This document shows positions 3,993 through 60,599 of a stretch of DNA of 64,000 nucleotides, one piece after another. The DNA comes from an uncultured Gemmatimonadales bacterium (GTDB taxonomy: Bacteria; Gemmatimonadota; Gemmatimonadetes; Gemmatimonadales; GWC2-71-9): NCBI GenBank assembly GCA_963709905.1, contig CAVPYI010000018.1, forward strand, positions 350,214 to 414,213, read 5' to 3'. Each line of letters begins with the position of its first letter. Position 1 is the stretch's first letter. The notes under the pieces were generated by a model, which was not told the DNA's origin, did no database searches, and worked only from the letters and a program-made list of their open reading frames with translations. A program made the translations under genes and the position numbers.

Positions 3993-4346
3993 ATGTCTGA
4001 TGCCCCAGAGCTTCGGGTAAGGTTGACCGGATGTCTCCCTGACACGGCCTCCTCCGCGTCGATCCGGCCGAATGGCAGCCTGGTGATCGAGATCTATGAT
4101 TGGAGCGCCGAAGCGGAGCAGTGGCTGGGTCGGGAGGCCGCCTACTTCATGATCGTGGCGGCCGAGCACAAGGGCAGAATCCTAGCGCACCTGGTTCCTG
4201 AGGACGAGACAGTTTCCACGACGACAGGCATCGATCACCGGCTACTGACAGTCCTGCAGCAGCGGTTCATCGATTACTACGCCGTGAAGCAATGGCTGGA
4301 AGCGACCGGCATTCCGTTCGAGAAGGACTTCGACGGGTGGGCGTAG
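3993..4346 (+). CDS. hypothetical protein
   Basis: 117-aa ORF with balanced, non-repetitive composition (..LVIEIYDWSAEAEQWLGREAAYFMIVAAEHKGRILAHLVPED..). No clear SD and no family recognised. Confidence 0.4.
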   Translation: MSDAPELRVRLTGCLPDTASSASIRPNGSLVIEIYDWSAEAEQWLGREAAYFMIVAAEHKGRILAHLVPEDETVSTTTGIDHRLLTVLQQRFIDYYAVKQWLEATGIPFEKDFDGWA

Positions 4347-7963: not shown

Positions 7964-8078
7964 GGCGGCTCGGCGGCTCGGCCCGAAGGTCCGCGACACC
8001 GCACAATTCCACGCTAGCCCCTGGACTCGTACTGTGCCTTATGACTGCCGAGCCGCCGAGCCGCCGAGCCGCCGAGCC
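7964..8078. repeat. inverted octamer-repeat pair (GGCGGCTC x2.5 at 7964-7983; GCCGAGCC x4 at 8047-8078) between sdhC-like gene and sdhA
   Basis: Direct reading; spacer ~63 nt. The pair fills most of the 127-nt intra-operon gap. Confidence 0.85.
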
Positions 8079-10696: not shown

Positions 10697-10851
10697 GGAT
10701 TGAGGGATTGAGGGATTGAGGGATTGGGGGATTGAGAGATTGACGATTGGCCTCGGTCGACTTCCCAACTCTATCGTGAGCGAACCTCAATCCCTCAATC
10801 CCCCAATCCCCCAATCCCTCAATCCCTCAATCTCTCAATCCCCCAATCCTC
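10697..10851. repeat. inverted octamer-repeat pair (GGATTGAG x~6.7 at 10697-10750; CCTCAATC/CCCCAATC x8 at 10785-10851)
   Basis: Direct reading; 34-nt spacer. Lies immediately after the sdhB stop. Confidence 0.9.
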
Positions 10852-16502: not shown

Positions 16503-18037
16503 GGAGACGCTTCGTCGTGGAGGGTGAGGATGGCGCGACGGGCCCGCTCCCGGCCGTAGTGCCAGTCGCGAAGGTCGGTGGAATAGATGTCCGAGCGTTT
16601 CATGAGACCATCCCGCACAATGGCGCGTTCCGGGTCGGCAAGCGACGGCAGAGCCGCGACCAGGGCCGGGACGGCATCGGTGCCGAGTCGGGCAAGATGG
16701 GAGGCGTCGAGGCTCTTGCCCACGGCGTGACGCCGGAGATTCGTGGTCACTATCAGGCGGTCGGGATTGGCGAGGTTCAAGAGCGCGAGCCAAACCCCCC
16801 AGGCGACGAGCGCCCCGCGCGCAAACAGCAACGCCCTCCCCTGCAACACGGTGGCGATGAACCAGGCACAGGTGACGGCCGCGCCGGCCATGAACGCGGA
16901 GGCGAACAGCCGGTCCTGCGTCAGCCCGAACTCACCCTGGTACAGCGCCATCCGGTGCATCCCGGACCCGATGATGGCGAGCAGCAGAGCGACCTGGATC
17001 CCGGCCAGCCAGCGGTAGCACCGGCGCGCCCGGGGATCGTCCGGCGTCAGCCGGGTGTTGAGCAGGAGCAGCAACGGCAGTACCAGCGCGGTCACCACCA
17101 CCAGCTCGAAGAAACCCCTTCGGGCGTACTCGGCGAGCGTGACACCCATGGTCCGCTGCACCCAGTCCGTCCCGCCGAAGAAGTAGGGAACCTGCCAGGC
17201 GATGAAGCCGGCAAAGAGGAGATCGACCACCCCCAGCGTCAGGCCAATCTCGATCGCGCCCAGGCCCCGGCTGGGCGGCCGCGAAGTTCCAGAGAGGTAA
17301 TCAACGGCCGCGGGCAGCAATCCGCGCAGGATGGCCGCCGCGATCCAGGCCGCCAGGGTCACGCCCAGTACGTGGCCGATCAGAACCTCGGGATCCACGG
17401 CGACGATTCGGCGCATGGCGTCGCCGAACACCGGGTCGGCCGAACCCAGCAGGGTGCCGAAGACCGCGCCGGTGGGCACGGCGATCATGAGCCCACGCGC
17501 CAAGGCACCGAGCGGAAGCGTCCGCCTCGCCTTGGAGTCGCGCGATTCGCGCTCCGCCTCGAGCACGGTCGGCAACAGGCCCGAGACCCCCCGACCGGCC
17601 AGACCAGCCAGTGCCCTGAGCAGCTGGGCCACGGTCAGCCGCCCCAAGGCCGTGCGGCAATCGGCCACGCGAGCCAAAGGCAGGAGCGCGAAGACCAGGA
17701 TCAGCGCGAGGGCATCGAGGAACCGGAGCATGGCGTTGTCCCGCCATACCCACGCGGCGGCGAGGGCCAGGGCGCACACCAGCAGTCCGCGCTCCCATGA
17801 GCGGCTCGGCGGCTCGGCGGCTCGGCCGCTCGGCGCAGGGCATGAATCGACCACCGACCCGCCAGCCGCCGAGCCGCCGAGTCGCCGAGTCGCCGAGTGC
17901 CAAACCAGAACCGCTCCCCCGGTCCAGACCAGGACGTTCAGGCCGAGATGATTGGCCCGGAACAGCAAATCACCCGCGACACCGAGGGCCAGGATCGGCC
18001 AGAGCAGTCCTCCGGCCGAAGCTTTCGGACCGGTCAT
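16499..18037 (-). CDS. polytopic membrane protein (DUF4153/DUF4173-like) carrying an in-frame octamer-repeat insertion
   Basis: ATG 18037 inside ORF 16499-18487, overlapping the uppS stop as ATGA. About 10 hydrophobic helices, with N-terminus [28 protein letters not shown] typical of the family (recalled). Confidence 0.55.
17800..17897. repeat. inverted octamer-repeat pair (GCGGCTCG-type at 17800-17835; GCCGAG(C/T)C-type at 17865-17897) inside CDS 16499-18037
   Basis: Direct reading. Translated in-frame on the minus strand as ..[33 protein letters not shown].. Confidence 0.85.
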
Positions 18038-19848: not shown

Positions 19849-19903
19849 GGAGCCAAGGTAGGGAGTAGGCTGAGTTTCGTCAAGTGCTTTGTACCACAAA
19901 GTC

Positions 19904-20109
19904 GGCGGCTCGGCGGCTCGGCGGCTCGGCGGCTCGGCGGCTCGGCGGCTCGGCGGCTCGGCGGCTCGGCGGCTCGGCGGCTCGGCGGCTCGGCGGCTCG
20001 GCGGCTCGGCGGCTCGGCGAAGGATGCCGAACTAGCTGGTTCGCGCAATGGTCCGTTCCGAGGAGGGACTCGCCCTAGTCTATTCACGAGCCGCCGAGCC
20101 GCCGAGCCG
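19904..20109. repeat. GGCGGCTC x~14 (19904-20018) plus complementary GAGCCGCC x~2.7 (20088-20109) at the 3' end of the giant surface-protein gene
   Basis: Direct reading; this is the longest array in the window. It generates the spurious (GGSAARRL)n / (PSRRAAEP)n ORFs. Confidence 0.9.
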
Positions 20110-20111
20110 TC

Positions 20112-23100: not shown

Positions 23101-26063
23101 AAGGTGGCCACCTTGGGCGTCCCGCCGAACCGGACGTTCTGCACCTGGGTCAGGGCGGTGTTGGCCGCGTTCGGCGTCCCCGCCCGCACGTACACCGCGC
23201 TCGACGGCGACAGCGTGGTCGTCGTCCCCGGCAGCCCCTGCAGATCGATGGCCGGCGGGATGGCGTTCACCGTCCCGGTCCCGTTGCTGAAGCCCGTGGC
23301 CGACACCGTGATCGTGGCCTGGACCGTGTCCGTGACCCGGCCCTCCACCGCGTGCACGTAGAAGCTCTGGAACGCCGTCCCGTTCAGCAGCGTGAAGTTG
23401 ATCGACGGCTGGCCCGCGGTGGTGGCGTTCGGCGCTACCAGCACGTCCGGGCTCGAACTGGCCACCGTCACCGTCACCCCGCCGTGGTTGGACGCCCCGA
23501 GGTTGAAGCTGGTCGCGTCCTGGAGCCCGCTGCCTACCGTGACACTTCCCACCGTAATTCCCGGAAGGACCTGCACGGTGGCGTTGATGCTGTCCGCCAG
23601 CAGGTTCGTCGCCTGGGCCAGGAGCTTGGTGGTGCACGGCAACGACGCCGACCCACCGTACGTGAGCGTCGCGGTGGTGCTCACGAGACCGGTGGGAATG
23701 GTGACCGGCGTCGTGACCGCAAGACAGCTGGGGTCGGTCGGCGTGAGGTCGACCGTGATCCCTGGCGAGGGCGCGGCCGCCGGGACGCCGCTGCTCTCGA
23801 AGTTGATGGTGATCGAGGTGCCGAAGCTCTGGTTCAGCGTGGCCGACGCCTGCACGATGTTGAGCGACGCGGTGGTGCTGGCCGCGGTGACGCCGTCGAT
23901 GTAGGCCGGGTTGGAGACCGTGATCGTCGCCGGCCCGGGGAGCACGCCGTTGAGCGTGGCGTTCGCGGTCTGGCCGCCGGCCGCGATGGTCACGGGCGAC
24001 GTGGCGACGCTGACGTTTCCGGGCGCGCTGCTCTGGACGGTGAAGGTGACCCCACCGGCTGGCGCCGGATCGGGCAGCTGGATCGGCAGCGAGGCGGTAC
24101 CGCCGTACGGCACGTTCAGGGTGGCCGGCACGCTGATGTTCCGGTTCTGCACCGTGATCGGTAGCGTGCCATCGGTGAAGCCCGTGGCGGTCACCCGAAG
24201 CGTGGTACTCCCCACGGCCACGCCGTTCACCACGAAGTCGACGGTGGTGCTCCCCTGCGGGATGGTCCGGGTGGCAGGGGCCTGAACACCGACGATTCCG
24301 GTCGGGGGATCACTCGCCAGCGTCACGGCGACTCCACCCGCCGGCGCGGCGGCGGGAATCGTCGCCCGCACCGTAGTCGAAAGTCCCACGCCGACCCCGG
24401 GGACCCCGACAAACGACAGCGTGATCGGGGACGGCCCGAAGGTGGCCGTCGCCGTGAAGGTGGCCGTCCCTCCCGCCAAGGCGGAGGCCGTCTGGCTCGG
24501 CGCCGTGGGGCCGAGTGTCCAGGTCGCCTGGGCACGGCCATTCACATCGGTCGGGCCGCTGGCAGGGGAGAACGAGCCGCCGTCGGGTGTTGCCCAGTTC
24601 ACCGTCACCTGGGGCATCGGGTTGCCCTGTATGTCGAGCACCTCGACGACCAGAGGGCTCGCCAGCGGCGCCCCGGCGGGACCGGTCTGGCCATCTCCCG
24701 AGATCACGGTCACGATACAGCACCCATCCACCAGGACGGCGATGCCCGTGAAGCTCACGGAGGGGAGCGTGCCAACAGTCGCGGTGAGGGTGTAGCTGCC
24801 CGTGGTCTGGGGCATTGTCCAGCTGCCCACCGTCGCCACACCATTGGCGTCCGTGGTCTGGGTGGCACCCGTGATGGTGCCGTTACCCGGCTGGACGGCG
24901 AAGGTCACGGTGGCATTGGGAACCGGCAGGTTCGCCGCGTCGCGCACGATCACCGACGGCGGGGACGAGACCGGCGTGTTGATCCCCGCGGTCTGGGAGA
25001 GCGGCGAGTTCGCCGCGACGCTCGCCGGCGGGCCCGGTGCTGCGACCGCGATGGCGCTGAAGATCACCGGCGAGCCGATGAGTCCGCTGGCCGTCGCTTC
25101 GACCGTGATGGGCCCGGCAGCCGAACCGGCGGTGACCACCGTCTGGGCACGGCCCTGGCCATCGGTGGTGGTCGACAGCGGAGTGACCGACGTGCCGCTC
25201 GGCCCGAGCGTGACGGCGAAGTCCACCGGATAGCCCGGCACGGGGTTGTTCTGGCCGTCCCTCACTTCGACCACCAGCGGAGCCGGAGCCTGGGTACCGA
25301 CCAGGACGCTCTGCCCGTCGCCGCTTACCAGCACGATCGCCACCGCAGTGGGCGCCCAGGACACCGTCCCGCTGGTTGTGAGCCCGTTGGGTGTCTGAGC
25401 CGTGATCGTCACGCTCCCCGAGCCGGTGAGCGGAGTGGTCACCGTGGCCTGGTTGAGACCCAGCGGCACCGGAGTGAGCAGCCCCGGATTGCTGGAGGTG
25501 AAGGACACCGGCACGCCAGTAAGCGTGGTGTTCCCCTGCATTACGACGGCTGAAAGCGTCGCCGTCTGACCGTTGCCGAGCGTCGTGAGCGCGGGAAAGA
25601 TGAGCTGGTCGGCCCCGAGCCCGGGACCGGTGTACGTCGGCGCAATCGGATTGGTAGTGGCCTGGCCCCCCGCCGTCGCGATCACGTTTCCAGTGGCGCG
25701 GTAGTACTCGATCCCTCCACCCCGGACGATGGCGGTGAAGATGAATTCCTCGGTCGTGCTCTGCAGATCGAGCGTAACCTCGATCCGCAGCTGGGTCGTG
25801 GTGGTGGACCATTCCGCCGACGTCAGAGTTCGACTGAAGGCCACCGTGTTGTCGGACACCCGTCGCAGCTCGAGCACTACTTCGTCGACGGGAATCGGGA
25901 ATTCGCGGGCGGCCACCAGGAGGGACCCGACATCCATGGTGCCCCGGACCGTGCCCCGGGGAGACATCGCGCTGTCGGTGGAGCATGTGGTCAACACCAA
26001 CGCCCCGGCGAGAACGCGGGCGGCGCGTCTCAAAACCCTCCAGCGGGGGGCGACGGGACTCAC
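20112..26063 (-). CDS. giant cell-surface protein (1983 aa) with Ig-like (Big_1-type) domains and five C-terminal ~230-aa tandem repeats; possible lipoprotein
   Basis: GTG start. Leader RRAARVLAGALVLTTCS. N-terminal half has SGDGQ..PLVVEVRD..GNPVPG modules typical of Big_1 domains. C-terminal half repeats PGITVGSLTVGSGLQD.TSFSLGASNHGGVTVTV... five times. The five + strand shadow ORFs with the MKL.. start recur at 687-693-nt spacing. Confidence 0.85.
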   Translation of the reverse strand: MSPVAPRWRVLRRAARVLAGALVLTTCSTDSAMSPRGTVRGTMDVGSLLVAAREFPIPVDEVVLELRRVSDNTVAFSRTLTSAEWSTTTTQLRIEVTLDLQSTTEEFIFTAIVRGGGIEYYRATGNVIATAGGQATTNPIAPTYTGPGLGADQLIFPALTTLGNGQTATLSAVVMQGNTTLTGVPVSFTSSNPGLLTPVPLGLNQATVTTPLTGSGSVTITAQTPNGLTTSGTVSWAPTAVAIVLVSGDGQSVLVGTQAPAPLVVEVRDGQNNPVPGYPVDFAVTLGPSGTSVTPLSTTTDGQGRAQTVVTAGSAAGPITVEATASGLIGSPVIFSAIAVAAPGPPASVAANSPLSQTAGINTPVSSPPSVIVRDAANLPVPNATVTFAVQPGNGTITGATQTTDANGVATVGSWTMPQTTGSYTLTATVGTLPSVSFTGIAVLVDGCCIVTVISGDGQTGPAGAPLASPLVVEVLDIQGNPMPQVTVNWATPDGGSFSPASGPTDVNGRAQATWTLGPTAPSQTASALAGGTATFTATATFGPSPITLSFVGVPGVGVGLSTTVRATIPAAAPAGGVAVTLASDPPTGIVGVQAPATRTIPQGSTTVDFVVNGVAVGSTTLRVTATGFTDGTLPITVQNRNISVPATLNVPYGGTASLPIQLPDPAPAGGVTFTVQSSAPGNVSVATSPVTIAAGGQTANATLNGVLPGPATITVSNPAYIDGVTAASTTASLNIVQASATLNQSFGTSITINFESSGVPAAAPSPGITVDLTPTDPSCLAVTTPVTIPTGLVSTTATLTYGGSASLPCTTKLLAQATNLLADSINATVQVLPGITVGSVTVGSGLQDATSFNLGASNHGGVTVTVASSSPDVLVAPNATTAGQPSINFTLLNGTAFQSFYVHAVEGRVTDTVQATITVSATGFSNGTGTVNAIPPAIDLQGLPGTTTTLSPSSAVYVRAGTPNAANTALTQVQNVRFGGTPKVATFTTPSNGFGELLKAATAPGLTQTATIPANGTLYYTPTDTTSGGVAFHPLLAGGTTVSATIPDFISTTQAARSITVSQPGVTVGSLTVGSGLQDQTSFSLGASNHGGVTVTVASSSPDVLVAPNATSTGQPSINFTLPNGTTFQTFYVQALEGRVTDTVTATITVSATGFSNGTGTVNAIPPAIDLQGLPGTTTTLSPSNAVYVRAGTPNAANTALTQVQNVRFGGTPKVATFTTPSNGFGELLKAATAPGLTQTATIPANGTLYYTPTDTTSGGVAFHPLLAGGTTVSATIPDFISTTQATRSITVSQPGITVGSLTVGSGLQDNTSFSLGASNHGGVTVTVASSSTDVLVAPNATSAGQPSINFTLPNGTTFQSFYVQAVEGRVTDTVTATLTVSATGFSNGTGTVNAIPPAIDLQGLPGTTTTLSPSNAVYVRAGTPNAANTALTQVQNVRFGGTPKVATFTTPVGIGELLKAATGPGQTQTATIPASGTLYYTPTDTTSGGVAFHPLLGGTTTVSATIPDFIATAQATRSITVSQPGITVGSLTVGSGLQDATSFSLGAANHGGVTVTLTSSNAAMLLSTSSTAPGQGSISFNLNDGETFRSFYVQGNEGVSQLTATTVTVSASGFTDGTSTQTIVPVAIDLQGVPTTTTTLAAASAAYVRVGTANAQNTALTQVQNIRAGGVPLTATFTLVPANGVGELLKAGAAPSTTHQATIPVGLYYTPTDTTSGGVAFHPLIIGSTSVVASIPGVIATSQATRPITVSQPGITVGTLTVGSGLQEATSLSLAAPEHGGVTVTLNSANPQILLSPDATTPGQQQVSFNLADGTTFRSFYVQGVENVTQTATSAVTVTATGFGNGNAVMTIVQGALDLQGVPATVSSTAPVVGIYVRVGTPNVGNTALTQVQNIRAGGPGPLTATFNTSNVNAASMVTSTQTAGATSETAQITAGFYYTPTTVATGGVGLRPVAPGNASISAAITGFITTTAGVRPVQVQ
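20115..23570 (-). repeat. intragenic tandem repeat, 5 copies of ~690 bp (copies 1-3 nearly identical, 4-5 diverged)
   Basis: Protein blocks starting PGITVGS(V/L)TVGSGLQD recur five times. Shadow ORFs 22324-22668 and 23017-23361 have almost identical translations. Confidence 0.8.
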
Positions 26064-26091
26064 GATCTGACCATGACCTTGTTGGATAAAG

Positions 26092-26106
26092 TCAAGCTAC
26101 AGGCCA
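26092..26106 (-). promoter_or_regulatory. weak candidate sigma-54 (-24/-12) promoter upstream of the giant surface-protein gene
   Basis: The minus strand reads TGGCCT-GTAGC-TTGA against consensus TGGCAC-N5-TTGC. The GG and the spacing are correct, but the -12 GC is GA. It lies ~30 nt upstream of GTG 26063 and next to a sigma-54 activator gene. Confidence 0.25.
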
Positions 26107-26178
26107 ACTTGCGCCGAGTCAAATCCGGCCTGACAAACCGACCCGACCGGCTTCACGGCTGTTGGGGGCCTGGAGCCC

Positions 26179-27486
26179 CTATTTCGGAAGCCAGAGTCGT
26201 GCCCGGCAGCCGCGGCGGTCCTCACGGTTCTCGAGCCGGAGGGAGCCACCGTGGACTTCGGCGATCTGCCGGGAGAGTGCCAGGCCGATTCCCGATCCAC
26301 CGGGCTTGGTGGTATAGAAGGGCACGAAGAGATTGGCGGTATCGGCGATCCCCGGCCCCTCGTCCTCGACCGTCACCTCGAGGCCGGCGGCGGCCAGCGC
26401 CCAGGTGATCCGGACGCCGCCGCCGGTCTCGGCCACGGCATCGACGGCGTTCCTGAGCAGGTTGATGAGCAGTTGCTCCAGTTGATCGCGATCGGCCTGG
26501 ATCGCCAGCGGCGGCCCGGCCACAATTTCGACTTCGCGGCGGCGCTCCAGCGCCACTACCCGCCGGACCCAGGGGTCGACTTCGACAGTGGCCTTGACCG
26601 GCTTGGGCAGCCGGGCCAGGCGGGCGTAGGCTGCCATGAACCTGCCTAACGCATCGGCCCGCTGGCCGATAATGTCCAGGCCCTGATGCAGGTCTTCTTC
26701 CTTGTCGGTCTCCTGCGATCCGCGGTCAATCAGGTTCCGCAGACTGCCGGCCAGCGACCGGATGGGCGCCAGCGAGTTATTGATCTCGTGGGAAAGGACC
26801 CGGATCAGCCGCTGCCACGCCTGCCGTTCCTCGGCCTGGAGGGTGCGGCTCACATCGGTGAGCACCACCAGTTGATGCGGACGACCATCCTGGCGGAACG
26901 TTCCCCGGCGGAGTTCCCACCGGCCGGGGTGCGGACCGCTCCGATCCAGCACCCGGGGCGATTCTCCCTCGAGACAATCCCCCAGGCCCAGCGCCGGCGC
27001 CGTGAGCCCGTGGAGGCGCTCGGCCGGCTGGCCCACGAGCCGCTCCCCGGCGCGGTTCACCAGGCGCAGCGCGCCGTTGTTATCGAAGGCGAAGACGGCG
27101 GCGTCGATCTCCGCCATGACGGTCCGGAGCAGCGCCGTCGCCTCCAACGCGCCGAGGCGCTGGCCGCGAAGGGTATCGGCCAGGGCATTGGCTTCCAGGT
27201 ACACCAGGCCCAGGGAATCATCCCGGGGGTCGGCCCGCCGGGCCCGAAGGGAGTAATCGCCTTCGCGGAGGGCGGCGAGGATGTTCGACAGGGTCTGGAG
27301 CGGGCGCACTACCCGCTCGTGGAGGGCTGCCAGGCCGATGGCCAGCGCACCCAGCACGAACAGGGCGACGGTCCACCGGACTTTGTCACTGAAATCACCG
27401 GACCAGAGCAGCCACAGGCCGAGCGCCACTCCCGGCGTCGCTGACAGGGCGGCGAGGAGGAGGACGCGTCGGGGGTGGGAGGGCAT
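26179..27486 (-). CDS. sensor histidine kinase (2 TM, HAMP, PAS-like, HisKA, HATPase_c)
   Basis: 435 aa with H-box LIRVLSHEINNSLAPI, N-box LLINLLRNAVDA, and G-boxes EDEGPGI / GGSGIGLALSRQI. Confidence 0.9.
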   Translation of the reverse strand: MPSHPRRVLLLAALSATPGVALGLWLLWSGDFSDKVRWTVALFVLGALAIGLAALHERVVRPLQTLSNILAALREGDYSLRARRADPRDDSLGLVYLEANALADTLRGQRLGALEATALLRTVMAEIDAAVFAFDNNGALRLVNRAGERLVGQPAERLHGLTAPALGLGDCLEGESPRVLDRSGPHPGRWELRRGTFRQDGRPHQLVVLTDVSRTLQAEERQAWQRLIRVLSHEINNSLAPIRSLAGSLRNLIDRGSQETDKEEDLHQGLDIIGQRADALGRFMAAYARLARLPKPVKATVEVDPWVRRVVALERRREVEIVAGPPLAIQADRDQLEQLLINLLRNAVDAVAETGGGVRITWALAAAGLEVTVEDEGPGIADTANLFVPFYTTKPGGSGIGLALSRQIAEVHGGSLRLENREDRRGCRARLWLPK

Positions 27487-27504
27487 GGGAGGGGAAGTTA
27501 GCAG

Positions 27505-27650
27505 GCTGTCGGCTATGCACTGTCGGCTGTCAGCTATCAGCTATCAGCTATCAGCTCTTGGGGGATCCCAACGTGCGCGTCGTGAATATGCCTGAAGGCT
27601 GAGATCTGACAACGGATCGCCCACAGCCGTCAGCGGACAGCCGACAGCCG
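27505..27650. repeat. inverted heptamer-repeat pair (GCTGTCG/GCTGTCA/GCTATCA x~7 at 27505-27556; complementary CTGACAA..GCCGTCAGCGGACAGCCGACAGCCG at 27606-27650) between response regulator and kinase genes
   Basis: Direct reading. There is a 12-nt perfect match (CTGTCGGCTGTC) between one arm and the reverse complement of the other. Confidence 0.8.
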
Positions 27651-27658
27651 CCTCCGCC

Positions 27659-29017
27659 TCACAACCCGTACTTCTCCTTCCGCCGGTACATCGCCGTGCG
27701 ACTCAGTCCCAACGCCTTGGCGGCTTCACTCACGTTGCCCCCGGTTCGGGCGAGTGCCTTCTGCACCAGCAGCTTTTCGACTTCCTCGAGGGTGAGCTGG
27801 TCGAGTCGCACCGCCTGGTCGGCGGGCGGGGCCAGCGCCAGGTCGGCCACCCGGATCTCGGTGCCATCGGCCAGCAATACCGCCCGCTCGATGGTGTGGT
27901 CGAGCTCCCGCACGTTCCCGGGCCAGCCGTAGCGGAGCAGCGCTTCGACGGCGTCCGGCCGAAAGCCGGTGATGGGCTTCCGGTAGCGGCCGGCGTGCCG
28001 GGACAGGAACTGGGCCGCCAGCGGCGGGATGTCCTCACGCCGGTCCCGGAGCGGCGGAATGGTGATCTCCACGGTGTTGAGGCGGTAGAGCAGGTCCTCA
28101 CGGAACCGGCCGGCGGCAACCTCGGCGCGGGGGTCGACGTTGGTGGCGGAGAGCACGCGGACGTCTACCTTGCGGGTCTTGGACGATCCGACGCGCTCCA
28201 ACTCGCCGGTGTTGAGCACGCGCAGGAGCTTGGCCTGCTGGCCCGGGGTGATGGTGGCGATCTCATCCAAGAGGAGCGTGCCCCCGTCGGCCAGCTCGAA
28301 CCGGCCGATCCGGTCGGTCTTGGCGTCGGTGAAGGCGCCTTTCAGGTGGCCAAACAGCTCGCTCTCGAATACCCCTTCGGAAAGCCCACCCACATTCACC
28401 GTGATCATCGGGCGGCTGGCGCGAGGGCTGGCAGCGTGCAGCCAGCGGGCGGCGATCTCCTTACCTACCCCGTGTTCACCCAGGATCAGGGCGTTGGCGT
28501 CGGATGGCCCGACCCGCTCCATCAGGCGAGCGACCTGCCGCATCGCCGGAGACTCGACCACCAGGTCCGGCAGCCCCTCGCGCTGGAGTGTCAGGTTCTC
28601 GCTCTCCAGTCGCTGGCTCCGCTTGAGCGCGCGGCCCAGTTCCACCTGGGTGCGCAGCACTGCCACCAGCCGGTTGTTGTCCCACGGCTTCTCGAGGTAG
28701 TCGCGGGCACCGCGGCGCATCGCCTCGACCGCACCCTCGACGCTGCCGTAGGCGGTCATGACGACCACGGGGAGCGACTGATCCAGCAGCTGGATCCGGC
28801 TCAGAAGGTCGAACCCCTCGCGTCCCGACGTGGTATCGCGGGTGTAGTTGAGATCGATGAGCAGGACGTCGAAATCCTTGAGCTCGAGCGCGACCAGCAC
28901 CCCGCCGGGCGAGGCCGTGGTTTCCACCTCGAAGCCTTCCCCCTTGAGCAGGAGCCGAAGCGCCTGGAGGACGTCCGGCAGGTCGTCGGCGATGAGGACG
29001 CGGGGGGTGGGAGCCAT
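27659..29017 (-). CDS. sigma-54-dependent response regulator (REC-AAA+-HTH_8, NtrC family)
   Basis: 452 aa. REC domain VLIADDLPDV..DVLLIDLNY; Walker A GEHGVGKE; GAFTDA variant of the GAFTGA loop; LLLDEI; NVRELDH; C-terminal GNVSEAAKALGLSRTAMYRR. Confidence 0.95.
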   Translation of the reverse strand: MAPTPRVLIADDLPDVLQALRLLLKGEGFEVETTASPGGVLVALELKDFDVLLIDLNYTRDTTSGREGFDLLSRIQLLDQSLPVVVMTAYGSVEGAVEAMRRGARDYLEKPWDNNRLVAVLRTQVELGRALKRSQRLESENLTLQREGLPDLVVESPAMRQVARLMERVGPSDANALILGEHGVGKEIAARWLHAASPRASRPMITVNVGGLSEGVFESELFGHLKGAFTDAKTDRIGRFELADGGTLLLDEIATITPGQQAKLLRVLNTGELERVGSSKTRKVDVRVLSATNVDPRAEVAAGRFREDLLYRLNTVEITIPPLRDRREDIPPLAAQFLSRHAGRYRKPITGFRPDAVEALLRYGWPGNVRELDHTIERAVLLADGTEIRVADLALAPPADQAVRLDQLTLEEVEKLLVQKALARTGGNVSEAAKALGLSRTAMYRRKEKYGL

Positions 29018-29020
29018 TAA

Positions 29021-29048
29021 CCGTCGGCCGTCAGCCGTCAGCCGTCAG
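29021..29048. repeat. heptamer array CCGTCGG/CCGTCAG x4 (left arm flanking the four-helix-bundle gene)
   Basis: Direct reading. Begins 4 nt after the start codon (minus strand) of the response-regulator gene. Confidence 0.85.
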
Positions 29049-29141
29049 ACCGTGATGCAACGAATTGCGCTGAGGTGCGGGATTCTGATCACTCATCTCC
29101 TGAGCGAGACAGCTTGAGGCACCCACGCGACGGGGACGATC

Positions 29142-29501
29142 GTGCAGAATTTCAGGAAGCTCAAGGTATGGCAGAAGGCACATGGTCTGGTGCTGGAAAT
29201 CTACCGGGTGACAGGACCGTTCCCCGCCCGGGAGCGGTTCGGTTTGACCGATCAACTCCGTCGTGCTGCGATATCCGTTGCGGCCAACGTCGTTGAAGGT
29301 ACCGCCGAGGCGACCGACCGCGAAGCGGTCAGGTTCCTCCGAATCTCGCTGGCGTCGGCTGCCGAGGTTGAGTACCACCTGATGCTCAGTCATGATCTCG
29401 GGCTCCTGCCGGCCGGCCCGCACGCGGAACTTGAGCGACGAACCATCGAAATCAAGCGCATGCTCAGTGGCTTCATCCGCCATCTGTCGGCTGAAGGCTG
29501 A
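29142..29501 (+). CDS. four-helix-bundle protein (TIGR02436 / 23S rRNA intervening-sequence protein family, PF05635)
   Basis: 119 aa, GTG start. FRKLKVWQKAHGLVLEIYRVT..FPARERFGLTDQLRRAAISVAANVVEG..RFLRISLASAAEVEYHL is the family signature. It is the only + strand gene in a 39-kb minus-strand run, and its last codons lie in a heptamer-repeat arm. Confidence 0.85.
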   Translation: MQNFRKLKVWQKAHGLVLEIYRVTGPFPARERFGLTDQLRRAAISVAANVVEGTAEATDREAVRFLRISLASAAEVEYHLMLSHDLGLLPAGPHAELERRTIEIKRMLSGFIRHLSAEG

Positions 29502-29514
29502 TGGCTGACGGCTC
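29484..29514. repeat. heptamer array CTGTCGG-CTGAAGG-CTGATGG-CTGACGG (right arm, imperfect reverse complement of 29021-29048)
   Basis: Direct reading. Encodes the last 6 codons of the four-helix-bundle gene and abuts the stop of permease paralog 1. Confidence 0.85.
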
Positions 29515-31917
29515 TTACTCCGCCCGCATCGCCACGACCGGATCGACCCGCGCCGCCCGGCGGGCCGGTCCGATGGTGGCCACCACCGCCGCGACGGCCA
29601 GGATGAGGACGGCCCCGCCCAGGGCGACCGGATGATCTGGCGTCACCTTGTACAGCAACCCGCGCAGGAATCCGACGGTCGCGATCGCCGCGAGGCTCCC
29701 CGCGATCACCCCGATTCCCACCAGGCGGCCGCCATCCCACAGCACACCGCGGAGGATTCGGACCGGGCTGGCGCCCAGCGCGAGTCGAATCCCGAATTCC
29801 CGTTGCCGCTGCTGGGCGATGAAGGCCAGCAGGCCGTAGACGCCCGCGGTGGCCAGGATCAGCGCCATGGCGGCGAGTCCGCCGAACATCAGCAGGTGGA
29901 ATCGTGGAGCGGCGGTGGTCCGCGCGAGCTGCTCGCTGAGGGGCGCGAGACCGCCCACCGGCTGATCCGGATCGAGCTGATGCACCACGCCCTTGATCAG
30001 GGCAATCACCGAGGCGGTCGGTCCGGTCGCCCGTACGACCAGGTTCATGCTGCCGTACGCAGGGTACTGCCGCAGCGGCACGAAGACCTCGGGCCGCGGA
30101 TCCACCTGCAACCCACGGTGGCGAACGTTCCCTGCCACCCCGACGATGTCCAGCCAGCCGTTGCCACCGCCAACCCTGATGCGGCGACCGAGGGGGTCCT
30201 CCTCCGGGAACCAGAGGCGCGCAAGCTCCTGGTTGATGATCGCCACCGGGGGACTGTCCTCGCGGTCGGTGAGGCTGAATTCGCGTCCTCGCACGGGGAT
30301 GTCGAGCACGCTGAAGTAGCCCGCCGTCGCGATCCGGAAATCCACCTCCTCCCCGGGAGGGACCTCGCGACCGTCGATCGCGAACGGGATGTCGTGGTCC
30401 ACTCCCGTCGTTGCCATGGGCGTGGTGGTGGCGAACGCCGCGCCGGCGACCCCCGGGTTCTCCTGGAGCCGCTGGACCACCTGCTCCATGAAGGCGTACT
30501 GCTGATGATTCTCCGGAGAGCGGCCACTTGACAGACTCAGATTGGCCACCATCACCTGTTCCGGAGTGAAGCCCGGTCGTTCACCGAGCAATCGTGTGAG
30601 GCTCAGAATCAGGAGCGTCGCCGATACGAGCAACACCGTCGAGAGCGCCACTTGCGCGGTCACCAGCCAGTGCCGGAGCCGGGCTCCCGCCTTGCCGCCA
30701 CGGCCACCGGCGCGCTCGCGGCCTACCAGGTCCATCAATCCGCGGTGGCGGTGGTACCGGGCTGGCACCAGACCGACCAGGACGGACACGATGACCGTCA
30801 GCACTGCCACGGCTCCCAGGACCGCAGCGTTCAGCCGGAACTCCCGCCAGTGGGTCAGCAGACCGGGATCGTAGTCGAGGACGAATCGTGTGAACCAGAT
30901 CGCCAGCACCACGCCGATCGTCGAGCCTAGCCCGGCCACGACTACCCCCTCGGCGAGCAGGGTGCGGACCAGCCCTCCGACCCCTGCGCCGAGGGCGGTC
31001 CGGATCCCCAGTTCACGAGCCCGAGCCAGACTCCGTGCCAGCGACAGGCTGACCACGTTGGCTCCGGCGATCAGCACGAGAGTCACGACAGCGGCTCCCA
31101 GCAGAATCACGATCTCCTTCGACGGCACCAGCACATCCCGGGCACTCCGCACCCGAACCGTCCAGCCGGCATTCGCCTTGGGATACTGATCGGCAAGCCG
31201 GGCCGCGACGCCGGTGAGTTCCGCTTGAGCGCTGGTCAATGACGCCTCGGGCCGGAGCCGTCCCAGCACCTGGAACATCCGTTGGGTCCGGGTCGTCCGC
31301 TCATGTTCGGCCAGCACCAGGGGAACCCAGGCCGCGATATCGTCGCGGTCGGGGAAGCGGAACCTGGCCGGCATCACACCGACCACCGTCACCGGGGCGC
31401 CGTCGAGCTGAATGGCCCGGCCCACGGCGCCGGGATCGCCACCCAGCCGGGTCTGCCAGAAGCCATGGCTCACGAGGGCCACCGGGGTGCCACCGGGCCG
31501 CTCGTCTTCGGGCGTGATGGAGCGGCCTATCGCCGGCCCGACCCCGAGCAGGGGGAACAGGCTGGCCGTGGTTCTCACAACGCTCAACTCGACCGGCTCG
31601 CCCAGCTCGGTGAGGTTGAATCCCCACACCGTCCAGGCAGCGAGGCCGCTGAACGATGTCGCCTGACTCCGCCAGTCGGCGAAATTCACAGCGGACGCCT
31701 CGTCCACCCGGCCCTGATCGGGCTTCTCCTCGGAAAGCACCACCAGGCGATCCTGATCGGGAAACGGCAGCGGCGCGATCAGAATGGTTTCGGCCAGACT
31801 GGCTACCGTCGTGAATGCTCCGATGGACAGTCCGATGACGAGTACCACGACCACCAGGAACACGGGTGCCCGGAGAAGCGACCGCCAGGCCCGTCTGATT
31901 TCGCGCAGGAACTCCAT
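29515..31917 (-). CDS. ABC permease, duplicated MacB_PCD/FtsX architecture (ADOP family), paralog 1 of 8
   Basis: 800 aa. N-terminus MEFLREIRRAWRSLLRAPVFLVVVVLVIGLSIG and C-terminus [16 protein letters not shown]. It has the most divergent N-terminus of the eight. Confidence 0.9.
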   Translation of the reverse strand: MEFLREIRRAWRSLLRAPVFLVVVVLVIGLSIGAFTTVASLAETILIAPLPFPDQDRLVVLSEEKPDQGRVDEASAVNFADWRSQATSFSGLAAWTVWGFNLTELGEPVELSVVRTTASLFPLLGVGPAIGRSITPEDERPGGTPVALVSHGFWQTRLGGDPGAVGRAIQLDGAPVTVVGVMPARFRFPDRDDIAAWVPLVLAEHERTTRTQRMFQVLGRLRPEASLTSAQAELTGVAARLADQYPKANAGWTVRVRSARDVLVPSKEIVILLGAAVVTLVLIAGANVVSLSLARSLARARELGIRTALGAGVGGLVRTLLAEGVVVAGLGSTIGVVLAIWFTRFVLDYDPGLLTHWREFRLNAAVLGAVAVLTVIVSVLVGLVPARYHRHRGLMDLVGRERAGGRGGKAGARLRHWLVTAQVALSTVLLVSATLLILSLTRLLGERPGFTPEQVMVANLSLSSGRSPENHQQYAFMEQVVQRLQENPGVAGAAFATTTPMATTGVDHDIPFAIDGREVPPGEEVDFRIATAGYFSVLDIPVRGREFSLTDREDSPPVAIINQELARLWFPEEDPLGRRIRVGGGNGWLDIVGVAGNVRHRGLQVDPRPEVFVPLRQYPAYGSMNLVVRATGPTASVIALIKGVVHQLDPDQPVGGLAPLSEQLARTTAAPRFHLLMFGGLAAMALILATAGVYGLLAFIAQQRQREFGIRLALGASPVRILRGVLWDGGRLVGIGVIAGSLAAIATVGFLRGLLYKVTPDHPVALGGAVLILAVAAVVATIGPARRAARVDPVVAMRAE

Positions 31918-31927
31918 GCTGCCTCCC

Positions 31928-32602
31928 TTATGATGCGTCGCTGCCGACCATCCACCCGTCCTTGAGGTTGATGATCCGGCGACCGTAGCGGGCGTTCTCT
32001 TCCGAGTGGGTCACCTGAATGATCGTCGTACCTTCCGTATTGAGCTGGCGGAACAGCTCCATGATTTCCCGTCCCTGGGCGGAGTGCAGGTTGCCGGTGG
32101 GCTCGTCGGCGAGCAGCAGCGGTGGCCGGGAGATGACCGCGCGGGCCACGGCGACCAGCTGCTGCTGCCCACCCGACAGCTGTCGGGGATAGAGATCCTT
32201 CTTGCCTACCATCTTGAAGCGGTCCAGGGTGTCCGCGACCAGGGCAGCCCGCACGGAGCTCTTCATGTCCCGATAACTGAGCGGCACATCGAGGTTTTCG
32301 GCGACGGTGAGATCGTCCAGCAGGTGATACTGCTGGAACACGAATCCGATACTGGCCCGCCCGAGACTGTTCCGTTCCTTCGGCTTCAGTCGGTGAACCG
32401 GCTCGGCCTGGAAGTGGTACTCGCCGGTGAACTCGCTATCGAGCATGCCCAGGATGGCCAGCAGCGTGGATTTCCCCGCCCCGCTCGGCCCCATGATCGT
32501 GACGAACTCGCCCGGCTGAATCTCCAGGTTGATCCGGCGCAGGATCCAGGTCGGGGACGGCTTGGTCGGGACCGATTTCTCGAGGTCGATCAGGCGAATC
32601 AC
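31928..32602 (-). CDS. ABC transporter ATP-binding protein (MacB/LolD-type), copy 2
   Basis: Real domain inside ORF 31928-33274, started at GTG 32602 ([10 protein letters not shown]..) just after the upstream permease stop. Walker [10 protein letters not shown], signature LSGGQQQ, Walker [12 protein letters not shown]. Confidence 0.9.
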
Positions 32603-47480: not shown

Positions 47481-47695
47481 GTCGGCAGTCGGCTGTGAGC
47501 GACCAGCTATGAGCTATGAGCTATGAGCTATGAGCCATCAGCTATCAGCTATCAGTTATCAGTCATCAGTCATCAGATATCAGGTATCGCTGATCAGCCG
47601 TCGGCAGCGGTCAACTCATAGCTCATAGCTCATGGCTCAAGGCTCACGGCTCGTGGCTCACGGCTCATGGCTCACGGCTCACGGCTCCCAGCTCA
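47481..47695. repeat. composite heptamer-repeat locus: (CTATGAG)x4, (C/T)(T/C)ATCAG x~9, central palindromic TGATCA region, then (CTCATAG/CTCACGG/CTCATGG)x~12
   Basis: Direct reading. Occupies nearly all of the 257-nt gap between permease paralogs 7 and 8. Confidence 0.9.
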
Positions 47696-50924: not shown

Positions 50925-50958
50925 GCGGGCTCCGGTGAAGGTGGTCGTTCCTGGTTGA

Positions 50959-51054
50959 CTAATGGCTAATGGCTAATGGCGATTTGCCATTGGCCGTTGG
51001 CCGTTGGCCGTTCTTCGATGCTGGGCCCTGGGCCCTGGGCCCTGGGCCCTGGGC
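50959..51054. repeat. heptamer hairpin (CTAATGG x3 / loop / GCCATTG-GCCGTTG x3, 50959-51013) followed by quasi-palindromic (CTGGGCC)x5 (51021-51054)
   Basis: Direct reading, in the adaptor|ATPase gap. On the + strand the first element folds as a ~22-bp stem with 5 G-T(U) pairs and no mismatches. Confidence 0.85.
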
Positions 51055-60385: not shown

Positions 60386-60563
60386 GCGGAGGACGGAAAG
60401 ACGGAAAGACGGAAGGACGGAAGGCGGAAGGACGGAAGGAAGATTACAGTGCGTCAGCAGTTTTGCTGCATTGCCGAGCGCGACCGCCGGGCGGTCGGGC
60501 CGTCCGCCTCCCATGACCGTCTGACCGTCTGACCTTCCGTCCTTCCGTCCTTCCGTCCTTCCG
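60386..60563. repeat. inverted octamer-repeat pair (GACGGAA(A/G) x~6.5 at 60386-60440; GACCGTCT x2 + CTTCCGTC x4 at 60515-60563)
   Basis: Direct reading. Each arm is followed in direct orientation by AGATTACAG(T/C)GCG (60441-60453 and 60569-60581). Confidence 0.85.
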
Positions 60564-60599
60564 ACGGCAGATTACAGCGCGCCGGCATTTCTGATGGCG

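Follow-up and report, generated by a model that had tools for sequence, protein, structure and literature searches.

The window analysed here is a 64,000-nucleotide (nt) stretch of contig CAVPYI010000018.1, from an uncultured Gemmatimonadales bacterium. At positions 29021-29514 it carries a 494-bp unit in which a gene of the PF05635/TIGR02436 family, hereafter the four-helix-bundle gene, lies between two inverted arrays of tandem heptamers (Table 1). The host genes on either side encode a sigma-54 response regulator and a permease, the latter being the last of eight tandem paralogues, and the 497-nt gap between them is filled almost exactly by the unit. Its left arm lies 3 nt from the regulator start codon. 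The last full heptamer of the right arm lies 3 nt from the permease stop codon, which the arm abuts if the CTC that follows is included. The right arm also encodes the last five residues (L-S-A-E-G) and the TGA stop of the four-helix-bundle gene. An inverted-repeat search covering 28900-29650 recovered the arms as 29-nt sequences that are 86% complementary and 433 nt apart. Their complementarity score of 20.75 was reached by none of 500 shuffles (mean 9.3, maximum 14.75), and the arms close both the minimum-free-energy and the centroid folds on either strand (z of -4.4 for the plus and -3.0 for the minus strand).

A gene call based on G+C content at third codon positions (GC3) yields an unbroken run of minus-strand genes from 13534 to 52384 (38.9 kb), in which the four-helix-bundle gene is the only one on the plus strand. 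This agrees with an earlier, sequence-only reading of the window, which had described a 119-amino-acid (aa) PF05635/TIGR02436 gene as the only plus-strand gene in a minus-strand run of about 39 kb. The same reading had placed the gene between imperfectly complementary arms, and its coordinates were right except for the three extra bases (CTC) counted into the right end at 29514. The last six codons that it assigned to the right arm are five codons and the stop, and neighbour identification confirmed the site between permease and sigma-54 regulator genes.

Table 1. Positions in the window of the cassette, its parts and the features next to it.
Feature	Position	Strand	Description
Left (5') arm	29021-29048, partial unit to 29050		CCGTCGG-CCGTCAG-CCGTCAG-CCGTCAG
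5' spacer	29051-29141	+	91 nt between left arm and GTG start
Four-helix-bundle gene	29142-29501	+	119 aa, GTG start
Right (3') arm	29484-29511 (29514 including CTC)		CTGTCGG-CTGAAGG-CTGATGG-CTGACGG
Sigma-54 response regulator gene (host)	27659-29017	-	start codon CAT at 29015-29017
MacB/FtsX-type (ADOP) permease gene (host)	29515-31917	-	stop codon 29515-29517
Gene-less nested heptamer hairpin	27520-27652		kinase-regulator gap; TCAGC-type, inner CTGAAGG-CTGAGAT-CTGACAA, TCAGC-type again

The encoded protein matches PF05635 with an E-value of 5.6e-34 (117 bits, cutoff 33.8) and TIGR02436 with 113.4 bits (cutoff 24). It carries the motif R41-x3-S45-x3-N49-x2-E52, whose four residues are invariant or nearly so in the homologue alignment and correspond to the RxxxSxxxNxxE motif conserved in the family (PMC3936711). 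Residues 5-99 are similar to XCC0516 (PDB 2GSC; phmmer E-value of 2.2e-15), the title of whose structure names an assembly of five four-helix bundles (Lin et al. 2006, cited in PMC3936711). The C-terminal tails of homologues, such as LTADG, LKADG and LKANG, are translated heptamers. For annotation this means that odd C-terminal tails (LTADG, LKADG) and adjacent contig breaks in such proteins are products of the arrays. No PADLOC defence-system model matched the protein at an E-value of 0.01 or better.

A GGGGA Shine-Dalgarno-like motif in the 5' spacer ends 6 nt before the GTG start, and the spacer is poorly conserved among orthologues. We found no intrinsic terminator at the cassette and no ribosomal RNA (rRNA) or other Rfam family in 26000-32000. 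The ends of the cassette are not bounded by a direct repeat, with TAA outside the left arm and CTC at the right. There is no transposase, the four-helix-bundle gene being the only open reading frame (ORF) in the unit, so the unit does not qualify as a transposon or a miniature inverted-repeat transposable element.

Related genes and their arms in other phyla

We sampled the branch of the family nearest to the window's protein as 81 genes at 80 loci in species-representative genomes from more than ten phyla, with proteins 44-56% identical; neighbouring genes at the 80 loci were called with ORF heuristics. An array was scored where a 4-mer recurred at least three times at an exact spacing of 7 nt, either within 200 nt upstream of the gene or at or after its stop codon. 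Such period-7 arrays were found upstream in 61 of the 81 genes, at or after the stop in 65 and on both sides in 53, compared with 41 of 1494 control windows from the same loci (2.7%). The same test at periods 5, 6, 8 and 9 scored 0-3 of the 81 genes. Upstream and downstream flanks were complementary (score of at least 12) in 70 of 81 genes and in 1% after shuffling, and median complementarity was 18.75 within loci versus 10.5 across loci. Across phyla, genes of this branch thus lie between arms as a rule, beyond coincidence. In the searchable literature we found no paper that links PF05635 to heptamer arrays or describes the gene and its arms as a unit.

Heptamers of the NNTCAGC type upstream and of the GCTGANN type overlapping the stop codon form the common layout, found almost everywhere in the sample. 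The unit itself differs by locus and the two arms change together, as in TTAGC/GCTAA, TCAGT/ACTGA and AGCAACT/GTTGCTA. At locus L010, TTAGC and TTGGC upstream are mirrored by GCTAA and GCCAA downstream, and at L166 GTCCGCC and GGCGGAC co-vary between the arms. The GCTGA type is dominant across phyla (35 of the 72 loci that could be classed). Arm units cluster modestly on the protein tree, with 5 changes for the GCTGA class against a shuffled mean of 10.7, and 28 against 32 for all classes.

Cassettes in these relatives have a median length of 455 nt and fit closely between their neighbours. Median spacing is 11.5 nt from the upstream stop to the 5' arm and 26 nt from there to the start codon. 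At the other end the 3' arm starts 12 nt before the ORF ends and is followed by 16 nt to the next start, again as medians. Where both neighbours are co-directional, 39 cassettes share their orientation and 11 are antisense. In other phyla the cassettes occupy unrelated junctions, for example the one between carA and carB in L009 and L060.

Relatives on IMG/VR contigs (L168-L222), whose viral status is as predicted, have complementary flanks in 49 of 55 cases, and possibly such contigs are vehicles for the spread of the cassette. The unit types of these armed genes include GAGT/ACTC and TAGG/CCTA. Metatranscriptome contigs cover the gene at L043 and read through its upstream array, which shows transcription at this locus unless DNA was carried over. 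At L012 (3001-3527), 55 codons from the N-terminal part of the gene stand as a truncated copy before an array, after which come the same spacer and a complete copy; nested insertion or partial duplication could each have produced this.

The permease-regulator junction in relatives

Six metagenomic contigs carry an orthologous cassette at the same permease-regulator junction, with its antisense position kept and a regulator 80-92% identical. The closest proteins for which we fetched the genomic context (L161-L167, about 61-71% identical) are likewise encoded antisense, with a sigma-54 regulator gene on one side and, on the other, the gene of a MacB-type permease or of its ATPase. Identities to the window are 92.5% for the regulator and 69% for the four-helix-bundle protein in L161, 85.4% and 65% in L165, and 80.1% and 61% in L166. 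The arms of L161-L167 belong to the unit family of the window, with GCCGTCA/GCCATCA facing GGCTGAC/GGCTGAT, in copy numbers from about 4/4 to 9/7. In every one of these orthologues, 0-4 nt separate the left arm from the start codon of the minus-strand gene next to it, which is the regulator in L161-L165. The cassette has thus been inherited at the permease-regulator junction in this Gemmatimonadota lineage, keeping its unit while the copy number drifts. L166 and L167, which come from one sample and encode an identical protein, have right arms of GGCGGAC and GGCTGAC units, respectively; this looks like strain-level array variation. The regulator gene of L167 is truncated.

Against the orthologues, the four-helix-bundle gene has a dN/dS of 0.06-0.17 (dS about 1 or higher) and a dN five times that of the regulator. 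Its GC3 is 0.70 in the window and 0.60-0.70 across orthologues, compared with 0.83-0.88 in flanking and host genes. On these values, the gene is functional, fast-evolving, compositionally atypical and long resident at the junction. Its GC3 has not drifted toward the host value despite this long residence.

A wider junction set comprised 80 further metagenome loci with a regulator 57-74% identical. Four of these have a four-helix-bundle gene directly upstream of the regulator, antisense in L081, L109 and L150 and in sense orientation in L132. Their arm units are quite different (GGGGTCC, CCCCGAG, GGGGACT and GGTATCG). The four proteins are 27-46% identical to that of the window, which itself is 56% identical to proteins from other phyla, and they form a separate clade (SH-aLRT of 99-100, in a tree built on about 120 columns). 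In L132 (3300-4000) the cassette lies in the opposite orientation and the gene has an in-frame stop, suggesting a likely pseudogene; the GGTATCG/CGATACC arms are intact.

Other loci have array hairpins without a gene at the junction (L084, L085, L099, L106, L107, L136 and L160). The L085 hairpin, some 240 nt ahead of the regulator start (position 4001), has ATTGAGTG/CACTCAAT octamers as its outer arms and, inside them, TCAGC/GCTGA heptamers that enclose a 27-nt loop. L083 (3437-4000) has a small membrane-protein gene at the junction instead, with CCCCGGA heptamers on the regulator side only, and CCCCGGA is the unit of the L081 cassette. In all, roughly 70 of 78 related regulator loci lack the cassette. 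The sequence-only reading had proposed a search for empty sites in relatives, and array-free junctions, with the permease stop 40-175 nt from the regulator start, were indeed found in L137, L145, L157, L146, L152 and L153. The junction therefore exists in filled, differently filled, gene-less and empty states. Folds of six empty junctions were no more stable than those of shuffled sequences, so they do not point to a hairpin that pre-existed as a target.

The earlier reading had also held that relatives with the gene at this site and no arms would indicate coincidence. All ten gene-bearing relatives at the junction have heptamer arrays; both arms are seen in nine, and one contig ends inside the gene. 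Array hairpins are abundant in the window, with about 12 inverted pairs, which would make a chance juxtaposition conceivable, but the enrichment across phyla and the arms in every gene-bearing relative at the junction refute it. The protein could alternatively be an orphan Avd of a diversity-generating retroelement, since it weakly matches the bAvd profile (22 bits) and the Avd equivalog NF033474 (26.1 bits); Avd and XCC0516 belong to the same four-helix-bundle fold family. However, these scores are far below the respective cutoffs of 40 and 80 bits, and no reverse transcriptase is present among the neighbours within about 20 kb. The genes between 18 and 52 kb of the window encode UppS, a helix-turn-helix protein, a surface protein, a kinase, the regulator, permeases, ATPases and an HlyD adaptor. 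We consider an orphan Avd gene or a chance pairing highly improbable.

A proposed counterpart of rRNA intervening sequences

We propose that segment 29021-29514 is an armed four-helix-bundle cassette, a putative non-rRNA counterpart of the ORF-bearing intervening sequences of 23S rRNA, a reading by analogy to which we give about an even chance. In 23S rRNA, elements of the PF05635 family lengthen one of the host's helices, and RNase III cuts their stem; that of Coxiella burnetii measures 428-444 nt and has a 28-bp stem cleaved by this enzyme (PMC4990558). With these elements (the Coxiella S23p element, Leptospira) the cassette shares the protein family, a similar size and a terminal stem of about 28 bp around the ORF, as well as a GC content below that of the host and a sporadic distribution (PMC4990558). 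The comparison with 23S rRNA intervening sequences made in the sequence-only reading thus holds for size, stem and protein family. The rRNA element has been proposed to be selfish or mobile (PMC4990558), and that source cites a 1993 proposal by Ralph and McClelland of a mobility function for the ORF. Unlike the rRNA elements, the cassette lies between protein-coding genes and not in a 23S rRNA helix (9, 25 or 45), its arms are tandem heptamer arrays whose unit varies by locus, and the window copy runs antisense to its operon. RNase III has been shown to cleave the rRNA element and may also cut the cassette.

The stem may extend beyond the arms. About 20 nt at the end of the gene abutting the right arm (the permease gene in the window) are complementary to roughly the first 25 nt of the regulator gene; this was seen in the window, L161, L164 and L165, with pairing energies of -24 to -34 kcal/mol (28990-29020 and 29515-29545 in the window). 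Covariation between these host ends is not compelling, because the sequences are G-rich on one side and C-rich on the other. Since the host gene ends pair, the helix would run from host coding sequence through the arrays.

In the working that we propose for the cassette, the arms and the complementary host gene ends would pair in the operon transcript, in single-stranded DNA or in both, looping out the insert of about 430 nt. The permease stop and the regulator start would therefore stay side by side. This would limit the damage to the host operon and probably couple translation of the regulator to that of the permease: the helix would keep the upstream stop facing the downstream start, and ribosomes finishing the permease would open it, so that the genes could remain coupled despite a 500-nt insert. 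By analogy with the rRNA elements, a double-strand RNase is likely to attack the stem. The protein probably binds nucleic acid as a pentamer, as suggested by XCC0516 and Avd, and presumably acts on the arms when the cassette is maintained or spreads.

The pairing of host gene ends is also what would be expected if the cassette were a domesticated local regulator of the sigma-54 system, in which the left arm and the paired host flank bury the regulator start and antisense transcription or binding of the protein to the arms tunes regulator translation. A left arm 0-4 nt away from the regulator start, as the window and L161-L165 have it, would suit such a role, as would the antisense position kept in the six orthologous contigs and the purifying selection on the protein over regulator identities of 80-92%. 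Cassettes of the same type, however, occupy unrelated junctions in other phyla, such as carA-carB in L009 and L060, and most related regulator loci do without one. We know of no operator-like feature for this protein family. Local regulation is therefore an improbable account of the element.

Several observations weigh against a cassette that is the counterpart of the rRNA elements and works as proposed. In the arms, G-U pairs on the sense strand number 102 and A-C pairs 95, without strand bias, and duplex energies do not differ between sense and antisense (41 vs 33, p 0.12). RNA-level pairing is therefore not demonstrably selected, and copying between the arms at the DNA level could keep them complementary. 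No sigma-70 consensus promoter was found for the cassette gene, and the window copy, antisense to its operon, has the minority orientation. The cassette looks static over long times in this lineage, and the layout rule holds for one branch of the family and not for the whole. Low GC3 and a five-fold protein rate would fit a semi-foreign element or a weakly expressed host gene alike. An approximately unbiased test did not reject a single clade of all junction genes (p 0.135), and we only infer cleavage, binding and movement of the cassette.

Two candidates were dropped on these results: RNA-level selection on the stem, unsupported by wobble counts or duplex energies, and independent origin of the two clades at the junction, which the tree separates, yet the topology test does not. 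The sequence-only reading had seen the gene and arms as a cassette-like unit with the arms as its mobility or processing boundaries. The unit stands, with its recurrence across phyla and on viral contigs; the role of the arms as boundaries is a conjecture, with no strand bias in wobble pairs and neither movement nor a target duplication seen.

What the locus adds to the known elements is a series of orthologues with selection estimates, a second and differently armed clade together with gene-less and empty states at one junction, an extension of the stem into host genes, and a negative test for RNA-specific pairing. Because orthologues, a second clade, gene-less hairpins and empty sites all occur here, the gene and its arms travel and persist as a unit and the protein is under selection. 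Two old puzzles meet at this locus, namely the ORF conserved within the intervening sequences of 23S rRNA and the excess of heptamer arrays between genes, which separate reports describe from Xanthomonas, Geobacter, Beggiatoaceae and cyanobacteria. Whether the protein binds the arrays, whether the stem is cut and whether it keeps the flanking genes coupled become directly testable questions.

Gene-less hairpins and the other arrays of the window

In its intergenic gaps the window contains tandem 7- or 8-mers arranged as about 12 inverted pairs, and their units vary by gap (e.g., GGCGGCTC, GGATTGAG, AGGCGTCA, GCTATCA, CTAATGG and AGGACGGA). The pair at 29021-29514 is the only one that encloses a gene, and a profile search in six frames found no second four-helix-bundle gene and no remnant of one in the other hairpins. 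Gene-less heptamer pairs lie in the kinase-regulator gap (Table 1) and at 47505-47694 and 50956-51012. The hairpin in the kinase-regulator gap is related to the cassette arms and is kept at the same gap in L161, L166 and L167; in L161 its unit is exactly that of the cassette arms. The source metagenome contains contigs that share only the cassette arms, around a 32-nt loop. Among hot-spring metagenome DNA runs we found one identical contig and no deletion or inversion allele of the window.

A gene-less hairpin at L006 (2850-3420) lies directly upstream of a four-helix-bundle gene and shares 63 identical nt with the 3' end and arrays of that gene. As 28 of the shared 63 nt are coding sequence (...FIQTLKADR*), with the arrays after them, the hairpin is a cassette that lost its ORF, a deletion derivative of a tandem cassette.

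Such a derivative would also be expected of an element that operates at the DNA level, its inverted arrays serving as hairpin, cruciform or short-homology substrates. The cassette would then be captured, lost and inverted within pre-existing heptamer hairpins by recombination or template switching, and copying between the arms would keep them complementary. The filled, gene-less and empty states at one junction and the two orientations of the cassette fit this account, and hairpin-templated copying or recombination between arms would explain inversion, as in L132, and loss. It is in line, too, with the lack of strand asymmetry in wobble pairs and duplex energies, the hairpins of the same unit 1.4 kb away and in the source metagenome, the dominance of the GCTGA unit across phyla and the armed cassettes on viral contigs. 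However, we found no recombinase or transposase, no target duplication and no near-identical copies at different sites; the orthologues show long vertical inheritance, and arms of 20-60 nt are short for RecA-dependent exchange. An element working purely on DNA is thus possible, if rather unlikely.

Repetitive extragenic palindromes (REP), their paired form REPIN and the associated transposase RAYT offer another comparison. There, as with the cassette, inverted copies of a repeat flank a single gene, and further copies of the repeat are scattered between genes as hairpins that hold no gene. Unlike RAYT, the cassette protein presumably lacks the HUH transposase fold. We also take the cassette-type repeat unit not to be constant within a genome. 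The arms are tandem arrays, where REP sequences are single palindromes.

Inverted heptamer arrays without a gene have been described as convergent GGGAATC pairs in Xanthomonas (PMC4692102), as heptanucleotide elements in Geobacter metallireducens (PMC2700814) and as TAACTGA repeats in Beggiatoaceae and cyanobacteria (PMC4679880). They share with the cassette arms the intergenic tandem 7-mers, in 3-14 units, that often form hairpin-capable convergent pairs beside start or stop codons. The cassette differs from them in the gene between its arms, and in L006 the gene-less hairpin is visibly a product of cassette deletion. A term search of these three papers found no mention of the PF05635 family.

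Returning to the cassette as a counterpart of the rRNA elements, we tentatively suggest a broader and rather doubtful extension, in which PF05635 proteins and inverted heptamer arrays form one self-contained system. A probable pentamer would read its own 7-nt units, and gene and arms would spread into hairpins of transcribed junctions, in rRNA helices, at cistron boundaries and in phage genomes, and leave gene-less hairpins behind by internal deletion. If true, such a system would account at once for the ORF carried by rRNA intervening sequences and for the heptamer arrays whose excess in bacterial genomes is unexplained.

The sequence-only reading had made the gene the protein partner of the whole repeat family of the window. 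This claim is weak, with a gene in one of about 12 pairs, no remnants in the others and seven pairs of octamer or mixed 7/8-mer types. Since period-8 arrays are not associated with the gene family, occurring beside 2-3 of the 81 genes, the octamer hairpins of the window may be a separate phenomenon. Octamer-array hairpins of the GGCGGCTC, GGATTGAG and AGGACGGA types lie at 7964-8078, 10697-10851, 17801-17898, 19902-20111 and 60388-60565.

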